From UHGV virus genome UHGV-0885813: a DNA stretch of 10,114 nt, one strand, 5' to 3'. Of the stretch, positions 2,770 through 10,114 are shown piece after piece (positions within the stretch are counted from its first letter, which is position 1; every line of letters starts with the position of its first letter). Position numbers and translations under genes: made by a program. Below the pieces are notes generated by a model. The model did not search any database. It saw only the letters and a program-made list of their open reading frames with translations, and was not told where the DNA came from. The stretch comes from a virus.

Positions 2770-3009
2770 ATGATTCGCGGAGATAAAACGGAAGAGTATC
2801 GCCTGTGTAATGACTACTGGAATAAGCGAATTATGTTCCGCGAGTATGACCGCCTGATTATCACAAAGGGATATCCGAAGCGCGACGACTTCAGTCGCAG
2901 AATTGATGTCCCATATGACGGATATGAAATCAAGACAATCACACATCCCCACTTCGGCGATAAACCGGTAAAGGTTTACGCGATAAAGGTGAATATCGGC
3001 AATGAATAA
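2770..3009 (+). CDS. ASCH/PUA-like small protein; start codon uncertain, homology appears to begin upstream of the first ATG
   Basis: Frame encodes ...NLQLAVKGEYFDAMIRGDKTEEYRLCNDYWNKRI..., which fits the phage ASCH-domain N-terminal pattern (L.L.LK.KWFD.I.SG.K.EEYR...YW.KR). The first in-frame ATG is at 2770; upstream in-frame there is only a CTG at 2734. Confidence 0.45.
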   Translation: MIRGDKTEEYRLCNDYWNKRIMFREYDRLIITKGYPKRDDFSRRIDVPYDGYEIKTITHPHFGDKPVKVYAIKVNIGNE

Positions 3010-3081
3010 CAATCCTAGCACTCGAGGGGATTTCTTTTATCTGAACTCGCTACGGCGGGTTTTGTTTTTTGGAGATGATAA

Positions 3082-3249
3082 ATGCACTTCCGAGTCACAG
3101 GTGAATGGAATGGAGAACCATTCAACAGAGTTATCGAAGCCGAGAACATCAGCGACTGCTATGACCACTGGATGCTGTGGGCGCAGATAGCACATGCAGA
3201 CGTAACCAACATTCGAATTGAAGAACTGAAAGAACACCAAGCCGCCTGA
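3082..3249 (+). CDS. small hypothetical protein (55 aa), not in the supplied ORF track
   Basis: ATG at 3082 preceded by GGAG at 3071-3074 with 7-nt spacing. Protein-like composition (MHFRVTGEWNGEPFNRVIEAENISDCYDHWMLWAQIAHADVTNIRIEELKEHQAA). Stop TGA sits in the loop of a hairpin followed by a T-run. Confidence 0.45.
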   Translation: MHFRVTGEWNGEPFNRVIEAENISDCYDHWMLWAQIAHADVTNIRIEELKEHQAA

Positions 3250-3580: not shown

Positions 3581-3595
3581 CTGCAGGGGACACCA
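3581..3595. other. attP core: 15-nt identity to the 3' end of tRNA-Arg(CCU) argW (CTGCAGGGGACACCA)
   Basis: Matches the T-stem 3' half, acceptor 3' strand, discriminator and CCA of argW as I recall it. Lies between the excisionase and the integrase, as expected for an argW-integrating element. Confidence 0.6.
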
Positions 3596-3690
3596 TTTAT
3601 CAGTTCGCCCCCATCCGTACCAGTCCGCAAAATCCCCTGAATATCAAGCCTTCCGTAGATTCACGGTTCGTCATGGTTCGCGTCAGATCG

Positions 3691-3756: not shown

Positions 3757-4914
3757 ATGCTCACCGTTAAGCAGATTGAAGCAGCAAAGCCGAAAGAAAA
3801 ACCATACCGCCTTCTCGATGGTAATGGCCTGTACCTTTATGTCCCTGTATCAGGGAAAAAGGTATGGCAGCTTCGCTACAAGATTGACGGTAAGGAGAAA
3901 ATCCTGACTGTCGGAAAATATCCGCTTATGACTTTGCAGGAAGCAAGGGATAAGGCATGGACTGCGAGGAAAGACATCTCGGTTGGCATCGATCCGGTAA
4001 AGGCGAAAAAGGCTTCGTCTAACAACAATTCCTTTAGTGCGATTTACAAGGAATGGTACGAGCACAAGAAGCAAGTCTGGTCAGTAGGCTATGCAAACGA
4101 ACTTGCCAAAATGTTTGATGACGACATTTTACCCATCATCGGCGGTCTTGAGATTCAGGATATTGAGCCGATGCAACTGTTGGAAGTAATCCGCAGATTT
4201 GAAGATCGCGGTGCAATGGAGCGAGCCAACAAAGCACGCAGAAGATGCGGCGAGGTTTTCCGTTACGCTATTGTCACCGGAAGGGCTAAATATAACCCGG
4301 CACCTGACCTTGCAGACGCCATGAAGGGATACCGCAAGAAGAACTTCCCGTTTCTTCCTGCAGACCAGATCCCGGCATTCAACAAAGCACTGGCAACATT
4401 TTCAGGAAGTATCGTATCGCTCATTGCGACCAAAGTTTTACGCTACACAGCCCTAAGAACGAAAGAGCTTCGTTCCATGCTATGGAAGAACGTCGATTTT
4501 GAAAACAGGATTATCACCATCGACGCCAGTGTGATGAAGGGACGCAAAATTCATGTGGTCCCGATGTCAGACCAGGTGGTTGAACTTCTCACTACGCTAA
4601 GCTCCATCACCAAACCAGTATCAGAGTTTGTTTTTGCCGGGCGCAACGATAAGAAGAAGCCAATCTGCGAGAACGCGGTTCTACTTGTGATCAAACAAAT
4701 CGGCTATGAGGGTCTGGAAAGCGGTCACGGATTCAGGCATGAATTCAGCACGATTATGAACGAGCACGAATGGCCTGCTGACGCTATTGAAGTGCAACTG
4801 GCACATGCCAACGGCGGATCTGTGCGTGGAATTTACAACCATGCTCAGTATCTCGATAAGCGCAGAGAAATGATGCAGTGGTGGGCGGACTGGCTTGATG
4901 AAAAGGTGGCTTAA
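3757..4914 (+). CDS. intS: P4-family tyrosine integrase, IntS-like (argW-specific)
   Basis: 385 aa from the ATG at 3757 (MLTVKQIEAAKPKEKPYRLLDGNGLYL...). Shares P4/CP4-57 integrase hallmarks (..KQIEAAKPK.., C-terminal ..MMQWWADWLD..). The ORF track's GTG at 3721 is an alternative start but falls inside the promoter/repeat region. Confidence 0.9.
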   Translation: MLTVKQIEAAKPKEKPYRLLDGNGLYLYVPVSGKKVWQLRYKIDGKEKILTVGKYPLMTLQEARDKAWTARKDISVGIDPVKAKKASSNNNSFSAIYKEWYEHKKQVWSVGYANELAKMFDDDILPIIGGLEIQDIEPMQLLEVIRRFEDRGAMERANKARRRCGEVFRYAIVTGRAKYNPAPDLADAMKGYRKKNFPFLPADQIPAFNKALATFSGSIVSLIATKVLRYTALRTKELRSMLWKNVDFENRIITIDASVMKGRKIHVVPMSDQVVELLTTLSSITKPVSEFVFAGRNDKKKPICENAVLLVIKQIGYEGLESGHGFRHEFSTIMNEHEWPADAIEVQLAHANGGSVRGIYNHAQYLDKRREMMQWWADWLDEKVA

Positions 4915-5166
4915 TGCCATCTCACATAGTCCTTACATCATTGGTAGCATGATTAATGAAATGCGCAACCATACCAGGCACTTCTACCCATTCAATGGTG
5001 GCGCCAGCCCAATTATTGCTCCACAATTAAGAACATCATCGCCTTACTATGCTTCAGCAACGCTTGCATAAAAAAAAGTAATGTCTCTATCATCTTTTAC
5101 CAGTGTGACATAATTACATCAAAACTAAATGTATATACATTACACCATAACAAGGAATGGCATTAA

Positions 5167-5194
5167 TTACATGTTTACATTAGTATGCTAAAAT
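5167..5194 (+). promoter_or_regulatory. possible promoter for the acyltransferase gene
   Basis: TTACAT at 5167-5172, 16-bp spacer, TAAAAT at 5189-5194, about 30 nt upstream of the ATG at 5226. The region is AT-rich, so hexamer matches are easy to find by chance. Confidence 0.25.
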
Positions 5195-5225
5195 GCTGTT
5201 TTTTTTAGTTTGATAGGCTGATGCA

Positions 5226-6215
5226 ATGAACAGAAATGCCGGAATGGATGCTCTTAGAATCATAAGTTGCTTTATGGTTGTTTGTATACATACATGCCTG
5301 AATTATAAATATGGTCAAGATTCTCTCAACAACCTTCTCGCATTATTTGGTCAATCTTTATTCAGAATTGGACTCCCTGTTTTTTTTATTCTTAGCGGTT
5401 ATTTCATACTTAATTCAAGAGTTGACTTTACCGCAAGTTCTTTTTTCAAAAGAATAAAGAAAATTGCCATCCCTTTTATTTTTTATAGCATAGCCCACTG
5501 GTTTATAATAAATAAAGGAATGACAGTAAGTTTTTCTGGAGTGGCGGAATATATCAATGCTTTAACAGTAAGAAATTCAATATCTATACATTTTTAGTTC
5601 GTTTACTCACTAATTGGGATATATATATTCGCACAACCAATAAATTATCTTTTAAAAGATATTTCTATTAATGGTTCATTTTTTGGATTAATCATAATAG
5701 CTTTTTTGTTTCTATATAATGGTGACCTGCCTTCTATTGGTAATGTCTTACCTGTTTCAAGCGTCGATAAGTGGACTGCTTACTTTGTTGCAGGAGGTTT
5801 TCTTGCAAGGATAAAAGACAAAATATCCATTAATCAAGCTATTATATTAACACTAATTGGATACACATCCATTGTGTTTATTTCTGTTTACAATAGCAAG
5901 AACAATCATCCAATGCCATACGACTTCAGCATTAGTATGTTTGTTGCTTGTTGTGGAGTTGTCCTGCTATTTTCAAAATTACATATCAAAAACAGCAAAT
6001 TATTAAGCAATCTTTCAGAATCTACGTACGGGGCATACCTAATACACATTTGTATTTTAAAGTTATTATCTCCATTTTACTTTACTCACATTCATAAGCC
6101 CGGCGTAATAAATTATTTTTTTACCACATTTATTTTAGCGGTGTTTGTTTTTACAGTTTCTATAACCATATCATTGATGTTGTTACCTATATTTAAAAAT
6201 CGATATTTGAAATAG
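5226..6215 (+). pseudogene. oac: Oac-like O-antigen acyltransferase (acyltransferase-3 family) interrupted by an in-frame amber codon at 5595-5597
   Basis: Track ORFs 5226-5597 and 5706-6215 are in the same frame, and everything between them is open except the TAG at 5595-5597. The joined product (about 329 aa) is a multi-pass membrane protein with N-terminal ..DALRIISCFMVVCIHT.. and FFILSGYF motifs typical of Acyl_transf_3 (Oac/OafA). The TAG falls where the family has a conserved Trp (H-F/L-W-F). Markedly AT-rich by eye compared with int. Confidence 0.75.
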
Positions 6216-6304
6216 GACCTAATTAGCAGCAATGGAATCCTGTTGTTGTATTATTCTATTACGCTTGTCATAATACCATTGTTTAAACATTGTATAGTTT
6301 AAAC

Positions 6305-6333
6305 CAAAAAATACGCCTGCTAAACAGGCGTAT
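6305..6333 (-). terminator. intrinsic terminator downstream of the tailspike; hairpin shared with the convergent oac transcript
   Basis: 9-bp stem ATACGCCTG / CAGGCGTAT with a 5-nt loop at 6311-6333. On the - strand it is followed by TTTTTT (complement of the A-run at 6305-6310). Sits 7 nt past the tailspike stop. Confidence 0.6.
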
Positions 6334-6339
6334 TGCAGG

Positions 6340-8232
6340 CTAGGTGTTAGTGATTTTCTTCCATGCAGATGCTGTAGTACCAGTTGCTTTATACCACTCA
6401 AACTGACCAGCAGTCGTGTCAAGATATTCTTCTCCAATATATCTTGGAACTACATTGTTTATTGGGTTTTGCGCCTGTTTCCTAACAAAGAAACGATCAT
6501 CCCAAAGCTTTTGTGTTTCATAGTTTAGAAATGACATTCCAGCGATGGTTAATAATGGTGATCCTGATGATTGATTTGAATTAATATACATACTAATCAC
6601 ATGCCATCCTCGTGATGCTATATGTATACGTGCCGATTTTTGCGTATCATACGATGAGTTTCTATCTATTGAAAGTGTATTATCTTTAACATTTAAGTTT
6701 AATGTTGCCGATGGTTTTGATGTGATATCACCATTAATAATTTCAACAACTCTATCATCAAGAGAATATTGTGATTGAGGAAGTCCAAAATCAAGCTCTA
6801 TAGATAAAGCTGAATTTGCCACAATAATGCTTGGGGTGAAAATAAGATCATCCTCATCAGCGTAGAAGCATATAAACACTTTATTTCCATACTGGCTTGT
6901 TTCAACAACATAACCACCAGTGTAACTTGCTAACGGCGGGCTAACCATTGATGGTTTATTTAACTGAGTTCCCCATGCCCCATCCTTTAGCTTCATAGAT
7001 GTTTCGAAAGTTCTTACATTAATATTTGTTCCTGATTTAACTTTCGTTGGGTTATTAAATTTAGAAAGTAGAAATGCAAAAACTTTTGCCGCAAGGTATT
7101 TATAACCCTCTTCACGAAAATGAACATTATCACTAAATCTTGTTGAGTCAATACCGTAAAAAACTTCTACACCGTCAAGAACTGGTATTCCGTATTGTTC
7201 GCCAATATTAAAAACAGCTTCTCTATAAGCATCAAGAAGCCTTACATTTGCACCATATTGTTTCTGTGGAGGTGGAGTTATCAAAATTACAGCAGCCCCC
7301 TTCACAAGTTCTCTCGCAATTATTTTCTTATAATAAAAAATATAGTCTGATATTGACTGGTAAGGGCTGAATCCCTGTGCAGCATCATTTGTTCCGTACA
7401 TGATAATAGTTAAATCACTATTAACATTTACATCCCAATCACCCCACCCTAATTTAGTATTATCACCTGAATAGCCTTGGTTAATAACATTAATGGATGA
7501 TGAAAATGCTTGCTGAAGATAGCCTTGCAACGCCTGAGGGTAAGTTGTTGCTGCCCTTGTTTTATTATGAACACGACCTGATGCTGTAGGAGTTGTATCT
7601 GGTGGAGTCGGTGCAACTGTAGTGTCTTCTCCATATGTCAGGGAATCACCTCGGCAAACGATGGTTATCGCGTCTGAATCACGTGCTACCTTTTCTGCAT
7701 ACTTGCTAAGATTTAGTCTTTGTAGAGCGTGTAATTGTTTCCCTAGTATTATTTGCGATCCAATATCGACAGAGTCATCTGAAAGCGCGAGGTTCATAGC
7801 TTTGTCGGCAACATCAACAGAGTTTGCAATATCTTTTGCATGCTTACCTGCAATGATAACTTCGCTACCTTCTTGCGCTAATCTTTGCTCAAATTGGTCT
7901 GGATCGTACTTCAGCACATTAGGAAAATAGAACTGCTGCACACCGTACGCATCATAAACAGCCATAGAATGGCCTTGCACAGTTACGAACTTGGCAATCT
8001 GTCCGTTATATACCGGATATCCAGCGGCGTTAATGATGATTGGTTGCGAAACAGGAACGTGAGAGCCGTCTTCGTTCTCCACATAAACCTGAATCCGGTT
8101 TTCAGGATTTACCGGGTCAGTGTCAATTTTACCGATATAAATTTTGCCATTGGCTACGGCTTTAAAAGAACGCGCCATAGTGAAGAGTTGCGAAGGCATT
8201 CCAATAACAGCATTTGGGGTGATTTCCGACAT
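6340..8232 (-). CDS. tailspike protein: P22/Sf6-type head-binding N-terminus, central SGNH/GDSL hydrolase domain, uncharacterised C-terminal domain
   Basis: From the internal ATG (plus-strand 8230-8232, preceded by AGGA): [69 protein letters not shown] closely matches the P22 gp9 / Sf6 head-binding domain. Downstream are all four SGNH blocks in order: GDSLTYG (Ser codon at 7642-7644), [18 protein letters not shown] (His codon at 7120-7122). 630 aa from this start. Confidence 0.85.
7066..7683 (-). other. SGNH/GDSL esterase domain within the tailspike
   Basis: Blocks I, II, III and V (GDSL, G, GxND, DxxH) span roughly residues 215-420 of the track ORF. Confidence 0.7.
7876..8232 (-). other. 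P22-like tailspike head-binding (particle-binding) domain
   Basis: About 115 aa with high similarity to the P22 gp9 N-terminus as recalled ([22 protein letters not shown]...[13 protein letters not shown]...NVLKYDPDQ). Confidence 0.75.
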
Positions 8233-8423
8233 GTGCACAATCCTATTAGATTGATTCGATAAAGAAGGGAAAGGAGTTAATGCTACAAATGACGCTATTG
8301 ATTTGAAAAATGATCTTCTGTTCATTTAAAACACACTTTAAGCATGACATTTGGTAGTAATGTAAGAAAAAATTACAATCAACTCCATAGCTATTTAATT
8401 TTTAACAGTAATTCACATCTGCA

Positions 8424-10114
8424 TTACCCTGACAACGCATCAGACTTAACGCCTTGGGTCAGCGCGTTAATTGCCTTTTGTGCCTGACGCAAGGCTTTCT
8501 CAAACGCTGTTGATCCGCGTGGGGTATTTGCCATCCGGAGCATTGCATTTCTGAATGGCTCGCTCTCATAGGCTCGAGTAAGAAGTCCGTAGCTTACTGC
8601 TGCGCCAGTTGTCGCCGGGTTCATTGCTGTCCCATATCCGATAATGAACGGGATGGTTTGCTGCCCTGTTGGTGTTGTTACTGCCGCTTTTGCAGCCTGC
8701 TGCGTGGATTGCAGGTAGTTTTTCAATCCTTTCAGATAAGCGGCTTCCTGACCTTTAAATGTGATGCCAGTCTGATTTTGCAGAATGTTAAGCTGTCGAA
8801 GGAACTGGTCAGGGGATCCGCCAGATTTCTCCATCGCCTTTCCAATGATGCCATTGCGCATTTGCGCCCTGCCAACACGACCAACTGAGTTATACAGAGT
8901 CTTAATTTCCGATTTGTTCTTGCTGAATAGCATGTTGTTGACAACTTCCGGCGTCAGGTCGCCTTTCATGAGAACATTCTTCAGCCTGGTATTCTTTAGT
9001 TTCGCCGCTTCGTCAGCGTAGACGGCATTGGCCTGCTGATATTTACGAAGAGTATCATTGCCAAGATTCTGACCAATGGCACCATTGATATCGTCGGTCA
9101 TCGCCTTGTAAACTCGCTGAATGGCAGCATCGGAACGGTTTGGTAACACTGGTCGCTCACCCTTCACGTCCATTCTGAACTGGCTGCGCAGATCGCTTAA
9201 TTGCTTCAAATCCAGATTTACCGGACCATCAGGACCAGCATTGCGAACAAGCTCATCACGATAGGACTGAAGTTTTGAAATAGTCTCGTTATCAGCAACC
9301 TTACCAAGCTTCTGCAGGTTAGATATTTCTGTATCAATCTGCTGAATTGCTCCAGCAGGCTGAATGTTTACTCCGGCCATAGCATTCTGAACCTGCTCCA
9401 GTCGATTACCGGCGGCACGACGAATTCCTGATGTTTTCGCTTTAAGGCTGTCAATAACAACCGCTGGATCATACTCACCGAATTTATCGGCAAATCTCTG
9501 CACCAACTGGCTTCTCGCTTCCTGTTGCGTTGCTCTCATTCCGCTTGTGCCAGCCAGAGGGATATTTTCTGCTGTAGTCTGCGCCATTTTTCCGACGCGG
9601 GAAGTAGGCGGTAACAGGTCTGTGGTGTGCAGAGGAACTCCTTCACGCTCTGCAAATCTGATAGCCTGCTGCGCTTCTGGTGCAATAGCACCACGAACGC
9701 CACGATAAGCAGCACCTAATCCACGTCCGGCAGCGTTAATAGCGCCGCCAGCCAGAACGCCAATGCCTAAATCGGTAGCGAGTGCTTCCGCATCATCTTT
9801 CGCACTATTTGCAGCAAGTGACCCGACTGCGTTTTCAGCGAGAAGGCGAGTTGCACCCTGAGCGATTCTACCAGCGAGTGTTGGTGCCTGTGTTGCCGCT
9901 CTCTCAATGCCAGCAGGAGTGAGGTAAGGCAATGCCTCAGCAAATACCCTGCCCTCTGTAGTTTGTGGAGTCAGCGCGCCTTGCTGAAGGCCAAAGTCCT
10001 GCTCTAATCCATGCGTTGTTACTCGTGGCGTTGGGTGATATGTCCCATCGCCAATTCCGAGTTTACCGCCAGCCCAAGCCGCCGCGCTTGTTACAGCATC
10101 GGCAACTGATGCAG
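8424..10114 (-). CDS. DNA-ejection/transfer protein, gp16-like; 5' end lies beyond the window
   Basis: I translated 9933-10114 on the - strand and found the frame open to the window edge with no start codon, so the 502-aa track ORF is a truncation. Gly/Ala/Gln-rich composition and position immediately upstream of the tailspike fit P22 gp16 / Sf6 ejection protein; the assignment is by synteny and composition, not a verified alignment. Confidence 0.65.
   Translation of the reverse strand, partial: ASVADAVTSAAAWAGGKLGIGDGTYHPTPRVTTHGLEQDFGLQQGALTPQTTEGRVFAEALPYLTPAGIERAATQAPTLAGRIAQGATRLLAENAVGSLAANSAKDDAEALATDLGIGVLAGGAINAAGRGLGAAYRGVRGAIAPEAQQAIRFAEREGVPLHTTDLLPPTSRVGKMAQTTAENIPLAGTSGMRATQQEARSQLVQRFADKFGEYDPAVVIDSLKAKTSGIRRAAGNRLEQVQNAMAGVNIQPAGAIQQIDTEISNLQKLGKVADNETISKLQSYRDELVRNAGPDGPVNLDLKQLSDLRSQFRMDVKGERPVLPNRSDAAIQRVYKAMTDDINGAIGQNLGNDTLRKYQQANAVYADEAAKLKNTRLKNVLMKGDLTPEVVNNMLFSKNKSEIKTLYNSVGRVGRAQMRNGIIGKAMEKSGGSPDQFLRQLNILQNQTGITFKGQEAAYLKGLKNYLQSTQQAAKAAVTTPTGQQTIPFIIGYGTAMNPATTGAAVSYGLLTRAYESEPFRNAMLRMANTPRGSTAFEKALRQAQKAINALTQGVKSDALSG

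Follow-up and report, generated by a model that had tools for sequence, protein, structure and literature searches.

The locus studied here, in the virus genome UHGV-0885813, raises the question of whether two small open reading frames are separate genes or the halves of one gene cut by a stop codon and, in the latter case, whether the stop is real and what it means for the phage. The window, i.e. the whole stretch of 10,114 nucleotides that was analysed, was translated. It holds a single frame of 329 codons followed by a terminal TAG on the plus strand (5226-6215), with only one internal in-frame stop, the TAG at 5595-5597. It falls at codon 124, with the flanking residues SISIHF*FVYSLIG. The mechanical list of open reading frames cuts the frame in two, giving a product of 123 aa (5226-5597) and another of 169 aa that starts at the TTG at 5706. 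The coordinates of the features discussed below are collected in Table 1.

Table 1. Features of the acyltransferase locus and its surroundings (positions in the window)
Feature	Position	Strand	Remarks
attP core CTGCAGGGGACACCAT	3581..3596	+	Same 16-mer as the attP core annotated in Sf6
Tyrosine integrase of IntS type; 385 aa in the gene call for L001, an integrated relative	3757..4914	+	
Sigma-70-like promoter candidate, ATTACA-17-TAAAAT, extended -10 TG	5166..5194	+	Consensus match only
Low-GC (~30-36%) cassette: acyltransferase gene and esterase receptor-binding part of the tailspike	5169..7818	.	Enterobacter comparison
AT3-only (Acyl_transf_3) acyltransferase, complete frame	5226..6215	+	Nonsense pseudogene/null allele; Pfam, homologue alignment, PHROG
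Truncated N-terminal ORF, 123 aa; keeps R11-x10-H22 and the first helices	5226..5597	+	Residue 124 to the C terminus lost
T8 run in the gene, in frame here	5380..5387	+	T9/T7 versions explain the frame-shifted P0023/P0028 and P0025
Amber TAG in place of the conserved Trp124 codon; changed base A5596	5595..5597	+	TGG in all relatives
T6 run in the gene, in frame here	5702..5707	+	T7 in E. coli L003 and L004, giving ORFs of 164 aa and 169 aa
Residual C-terminal ORF, 169 aa, TTG start; without 36 residues including the conserved FVYSLIGIY helix	5706..6215	+	First in-frame start past the stop
Hairpin, perfect 11-bp stem, between the acyltransferase gene and the tailspike gene, which converge	6310..6334	.	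T run next on the minus strand
Tailspike, 630 aa: P22-type head-binding domain, then SGNH/GDSL esterase receptor-binding part	6340..8232	-	

A single acyltransferase frame with one amber codon

With a tryptophan restored at codon 124, the protein matches the Pfam family PF01757 (Acyl_transf_3) with an E-value of 1.8e-40, over residues 4-316 and profile positions 1-325 of 326. The score is 139.4 bits, the gathering cut-off of the family being 31. Scored separately, the N-terminal piece aligns to profile positions 1-104 with 77.3 bits and the C-terminal piece to 127-325 with 49.4 bits. The two pieces thus match successive stretches of PF01757 and are halves of one domain, not two genes. P0001, an intact protein that is 99% identical, matches phrog_3333 ('O-acetyltransferase') in PHROGs with an E-value of 1.6e-23; in NCBIfam, the sole match (VanT N-terminal) is below the threshold. 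Given the local composition of 30% G+C, 7.1% of codons should be stops by chance. The probability of finding 205 stop-free codons after the TAG by chance is about 3e-7, and that of finding at most one stop in 329 codons about 7e-10. Such tiny odds indicate that the amber-split gene is real and not a chance effect. The preliminary description had proposed a single Acyl_transf_3 membrane protein gene with this TAG as its sole break, which agrees with the translated frame and the end-to-end profile match, including the alignment of the downstream segment to the C-terminal half of the family.

A search of 5.8 billion proteins returned 17 relatives, and an alignment with 16 homologues was made. Position 124 is a tryptophan in 16 of the 16, H122 is invariant, and the motif at this point reads H-[FL]-W-[FY]. 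The W124 column is still invariant once the distant Sf6 Oac joins the alignment. The stop thus stands on a conserved Trp, as had been anticipated. At the DNA level, codon 124 is TGG in all five related DNAs (E. coli L001, E. coli L003 and three Enterobacter loci). L001 is the nearest intact DNA, and the window gene differs from it at 4 of 990 bases, namely A5596, which is a G in L001, and three others. P0020 (EFC4198956.1), an intact E. coli protein of 329 aa on record in 28 contigs, equals the window product at every residue but W124. These comparisons uphold both the TGG-to-TAG transition and the recent date that had been proposed for it. Between E. coli and Enterobacter, where the proteins are 74-75% identical, the gene shows a dN/dS of 0.10-0.14 at a dS of 1.0-1.5. 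Such a low dN/dS is a mark of purifying selection and tells that the gene family is normally functional.

The defining motif of AT3 proteins is R-X10-H in the first transmembrane helix, represented by Arg14/His25 in OafB (PMC9833829). It is present in the window protein as R11, IISCFMVVCI and H22; in the alignments H22 is invariant and R11 nearly so. The RXXR motif in TMH3 holds arginines that are critical in Sf6 Oac and OafA (R72 of OafA). The corresponding site of the window protein is K75-R76-I-K-K79, i.e. R-x-x-K, and its homologues vary here (KRLTRI, KRFMRI, KHLTHL). In OafB, the conserved Trp138 is listed among the mutagenesis-tested residues that are important for AT3 function (PMC9833829). 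We infer that OafB Trp138 and W124 fall in the same column.

A confident AlphaFold2 model (pLDDT 83.6, pTM 0.85) was made from an intact relative. It consists entirely of helices, about 11 of them long, at residues 5-23, 34-46, 49-61, 70-95, 103-112, 118-122, 124-143, 148-167, 182-199, 202-225, 236-250, 257-289 and 297-324. The amber codon falls on the first residue, in the first turn, of the modelled helix 124-143, the one that follows the periplasmic loop, with six more long helices beyond. Truncation at this point removes seven long helices, including the nearly invariant block of S264, G269, Y271, L272, H274 and I275. The best Foldseek matches of the model in the PDB are to human HGSNAT and are weak (E 0.09, probability 0.96, TM 0.38-0.41), and a sequence-profile search of the PDB with the acyltransferase gave no match.

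Conversion slot and esterase tailspike

The window is a mosaic of P22-like type (Lederbergvirus), with patches that are 94-97% identical to Sf6, HK620, IME10, HF4s and CUS-3. The order is: early genes (ead/Ea22 and DUF551), a xis-like ORF, the attP core, integrase, acyltransferase, the convergent tailspike and gp16. A metagenome contig of 4024 bp, L002 (ENA ERZ807378 NODE_48), is 100% identical to window positions 4855-8878. It ends inside int and inside gp16, as would be expected if assembly broke at stretches of the mosaic backbone that other P22-like phages of the sample have in common with it. In L001, the 16-mer of the attP core forms the 3' end of the tRNA-Arg gene argW, adjoining yfdC. 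In the window, phage DNA flanks the attP core on both sides, so the window corresponds to the unintegrated form of the phage, excised or in the virion.

The acyltransferase gene holds the slot between int and the tailspike gene that is occupied by oac in Sf6 and by neuO in CUS-3. This slot is the classical lysogenic-conversion position. The G+C content drops from 45-50% in the backbone to 30-36% over positions 5000-7400, the acyltransferase gene itself being at 30-34%. GATC is under-represented in the window as a whole (22 sites observed versus about 40 expected). The features of a conversion module are present: the position from int/attP to the tailspike, the deviant G+C content, and a candidate promoter and hairpin, these last two as consensus matches only. 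The promoter candidate is located in the 310 bp of AT-rich DNA that separate int from the acyltransferase gene, at the same place as the putative oac promoter of Sf6. Between its -10-like element and the acyltransferase start codon, a second T8 run is found at 5199-5206 (CTGTTTTTTTTA), which matches the intragenic one exactly over 12 nt. On the minus strand, the hairpin downstream of the gene has a T run behind it and thus looks like the terminator of the tailspike gene. No match for positions 5100-6330 was found by megablast in 50,697 phage records or in 5,426 complete E. coli genomes. An exact 41-mer across the stop, in which the variable base was set to N, is absent from the IMG/VR viral contigs and from the JGI metagenome contigs.

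The esterase part of the convergent tailspike matches Pfam Lipase_GDSL_2 (E 6.6e-19). Its GDS, GTND and DxxH blocks, which we take to be the SGNH catalytic motifs, are intact, and its sequence matches in the PDB are to esterase regions of phage tail fibres. Among the 50,697 sequenced phages, the receptor-binding part is without close relatives, the nearest being tail proteins of Vibrio phages at 52-55%. The sequence of this tailspike suggests that it would be a deacetylating rather than a depolymerising one. An esterase tailspike that deacetylates O-antigen is known from phage G7C (gp63.1; PMC10743462), and SGNH receptor-binding proteins have been documented in temperate Klebsiella phages (PMC13123978).

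Positions 5169-7818 of the window have 72% nucleotide identity to a prophage of Enterobacter cloacae (L006:5946-8569). From about residue 122 onwards, up to the C terminus, the tailspikes of the two phages have 70% identity, whereas their N-terminal adaptors differ, with P22 Head_binding in the window and Tail_spike_N in the E. cloacae prophage. The recombination joint is located near tailspike residue 122. The shared esterase part behind different adaptors indicates that the acyltransferase and the esterase receptor-binding domain are co-inherited across phage types. In PMC9558356 and PMC4413052, conversion genes are described that protect against the phage's own tailspike, in Sf6 and in BTP1. 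By analogy, the co-inheritance of acyltransferase and esterase would fit this logic of protection against one's own tailspike. The acyl group attached by the AT3 protein may be the one that the tailspike takes off or, alternatively, one that blocks it. This context may be worth a small follow-up, as it concerns the management of receptors by temperate phages with deacetylating tailspikes.

Probable loss of function and its competing explanations

We consider it highly probable that the locus carries a genuine and very recent loss-of-function allele (W124amber) of a conversion acyltransferase in a P22-like coliphage. In the mechanism that we propose, the intact gene would be a lysogenic-conversion ('moron') gene of an argW-integrating P22-like E. 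coli phage, and its product an AT3-only integral-membrane O-acyltransferase that would most likely acylate the O-antigen or another surface polysaccharide of the host. A single G-to-A transition has changed Trp124 from TGG to TAG. Translation would then end after 123 residues, and the product, deprived of residue 124 to the C terminus, would be non-functional. The phage would be viable but would no longer convert its host. The otherwise intact phage backbone speaks for such a viable phage that has ceased converting its host, and the event must be very recent because the rest of the gene shows no decay. The N-terminal product of the amber allele (P0019) is on record in one other contig only, L002, which suggests that W124amber is a rare and young allele. 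Of the three explanations offered in the preliminary description, namely a recent knockout, a sequencing error and expression restricted to amber-suppressor hosts, the first is by far the best supported.

The amber is not the only disrupted allele of this gene. In E. coli L003 (T7 at L003:2207-2213) and L004, the T6 run has become T7 by an insertion, with TGG kept at codon 124. Editing the T8 run of the window to T9 reproduces exactly the database proteins P0023 (4 contigs) and P0028, and editing it to T7 reproduces P0025; these T9 and T7 alleles rest on database proteins matched to edited window DNA, not on DNA of their own. With at least four disrupted alleles in public E. coli data (W124amber, T6-to-T7, T8-to-T9 and T8-to-T7), one may wonder if the acyltransferase is lost by selection or through a switch. 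The locus would then be of the contingency type: its inactivation would alter the receptor state met by competing phages or by the esterase tailspike of the phage itself, and the amber would be one recurrent 'off' allele among several. The co-inheritance of the gene with the esterase receptor-binding domain as a cassette would be in line with this, and phase-variable or frame-shifted AT3 genes are known, such as Haemophilus oafA and Salmonella oafB (PMC9558356). However, an amber point mutation is no slippage switch. Both T runs (T8 and T6) are broken up in the Enterobacter homologues and therefore look like by-products of coding in a Phe-rich, AT-rich gene; in our reading, they are mutational hot spots rather than an evolved switch. 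Some of the tract-length variants could moreover be assembly errors, and intact copies dominate, with about 66 contigs versus about 9 disrupted ones among the listed cluster members. A Dam/OxyR epigenetic switch, as in gtr operons, was also considered and rejected, as there is no GATC site in positions 4821-6494 (1.67 kb, covering the acyltransferase gene and its upstream spacer). Selected or switchable loss is thus improbable. In a wider version of the idea, one acyl group of the host polysaccharide would be added by the acyltransferase and removed by the esterase tailspike, a matched 'writer/eraser' pair whose cassette moves between unrelated backbones, and the recurrent null alleles would reflect selection or switching of the receptor state, not random decay. 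This proposal is speculative, and we give it only a small chance of being right.

Could the TAG be a sequencing or assembly artefact, the true phage carrying TGG and an intact gene? The window is one base away from the common intact allele, and the single further record of P0019 would also be compatible with an error. However, L002 is a separate assembly record that has the same TAG at a k-mer coverage of about 56x (label cov_56), where consensus substitution errors are very rare, and this argues against a consensus error. The window and L002 may come from the same sample, in which case the TAG would have been seen only once independently. The change itself is a G-to-A substitution after a T5 run, outside any homopolymer-length error. 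The sequencing error envisaged in the preliminary description is thus very unlikely.

Last, expression of the gene could persist, with an amino acid inserted at codon 124 through amber suppression or readthrough, or with two half-proteins that complement each other. Nothing interrupts the frame downstream, and an in-frame TTG start is available past the stop, but the recency of the event fully accounts for the intact frame. A restart at this TTG (5706), 36 codons past the stop, would omit 36 conserved residues, including the nearly invariant F125, V126, Y127 and Y133. This makes a working split enzyme unlikely: a functional split gene was rejected on this basis, and the 169-aa ORF, judged by its sequence, would probably not be a functional half-protein. 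Furthermore, TAG ends the acyltransferase gene itself (6213-6215), the tailspike gene and the ORF at 3002-3190, an internal TAG occurs in no other gene of the window, and ARAGORN found no tRNA gene in the 10-kb window. With TAG as a normal terminator and no tRNA gene in the window, recoding or suppression is unlikely, and we rejected TAG reassignment, pyrrolysine-type recoding and suppressor tRNAs. A T after the stop codon favours efficient termination in E. coli, and the amber has a T next to it. Amber suppressors are rare among natural isolates of E. coli. A suppressor tRNA gene outside the 10-kb window and readthrough at a low level are formal possibilities, readthrough being presumably absent. 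Continued expression is extremely improbable, and the earlier idea of a gene expressed in amber-suppressor hosts finds no support here.

The locus is a clean case of an accessory (conversion) gene just after its knockout, such genes being dispensable for the phage. For annotation, a single pseudogene should be recorded in place of the separate 123-aa and 169-aa ORFs, and modification of surface sugars should not be predicted for lysogens of this phage. Modest leads are the uncharacterised cassette of an AT3 protein and an SGNH-esterase receptor-binding domain, and the several independent null alleles in E. coli.

Comparison with known systems

The best-known counterpart is Oac of Sf6 (gene 15), an O-antigen O-acetyltransferase. 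Both proteins belong to Acyl_transf_3, are AT3-only and are of similar length (333 aa for Sf6 Oac versus 329 aa), and the H22 and W124 columns are common to both. The gene order is also the same, with int, the acyltransferase gene and a convergent tailspike gene, an AT-rich promoter spacer and a closely related backbone. However, overall identity is only about 20%, and BLASTP aligned only the N-terminal 128 residues (30%, E 1e-4). Sf6 was not recovered by tblastn against the 50,697 phage records at E 1e-5. A close relationship or orthology to Sf6 Oac, a rhamnose 2-O-acetylase, was rejected on account of the low identity and the tblastn result. The label 'Oac-like' of the preliminary description is thus appropriate for the family and the genomic position, but not for close relationship. 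The partner tailspikes also differ, being an SGNH esterase in the window and an endorhamnosidase in Sf6, and the window gene is a nonsense allele, unlike Sf6 oac. From the context, we infer that O-antigen is the substrate of the acyltransferase.

Far closer are the AT3 acyltransferases of E. coli and Enterobacter prophages. Their full-length identity to the window product is 99-100% in E. coli (P0020) and 74-75% in Enterobacter (E. cloacae P0002 and E. mori P0005). They share the prophage context, and the E. cloacae copy is again convergent with an esterase tailspike. Unlike the window gene, the compared copies (P0020, P0002 and P0005) are intact, with TGG at codon 124. Our literature search found no experimental studies of these E. 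coli and Enterobacter prophage enzymes. More distant homologues are found in other prophages. In a Citrobacter freundii prophage at argW (L013:5001-8363), an AT3-only homologue with 33% identity is located in the int-adjacent slot and is followed by a stand-alone GDSL/SGNH protein of 232 aa and a convergent AT3-SGNH fusion of 529 aa. This AT3-only protein may have a separate SGNH partner. In a Morganella morganii prophage (L011:5001-8423), an AT3 homologue with 34% identity is convergent with a 787-aa protein without Pfam match, beside holin genes; here, too, a conversion gene is probably coupled to a tail protein.

The GtrC/OafB genes of BTP1 and the gtr/oac-type modules of P22-like phages resemble the window in that prophage-borne O-antigen-modifying genes are placed beside the tailspike gene, and conversion genes of the GtrC/OafB type block the activity of the adjoining tailspike (PMC4413052; PMC9558356). 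OafB differs from the window protein in being an AT3-SGNH fusion under Dam/OxyR phase variation, whereas the window protein is AT3-only and its gene has no GATC upstream. In Haemophilus influenzae, oafA is an AT3 gene with on and off alleles among isolates (PMC9558356), and the E. coli copies of the window gene likewise include several off alleles. The lesion in the window is a base substitution, unlike the repeat-length change of the oafA type, and the T8 and T6 runs are short and not conserved in the homologues. The acyltransferase itself is of an uncharacterised AT3-only type, and the W124amber allele belongs to a known kind, that of the decayed conversion gene.
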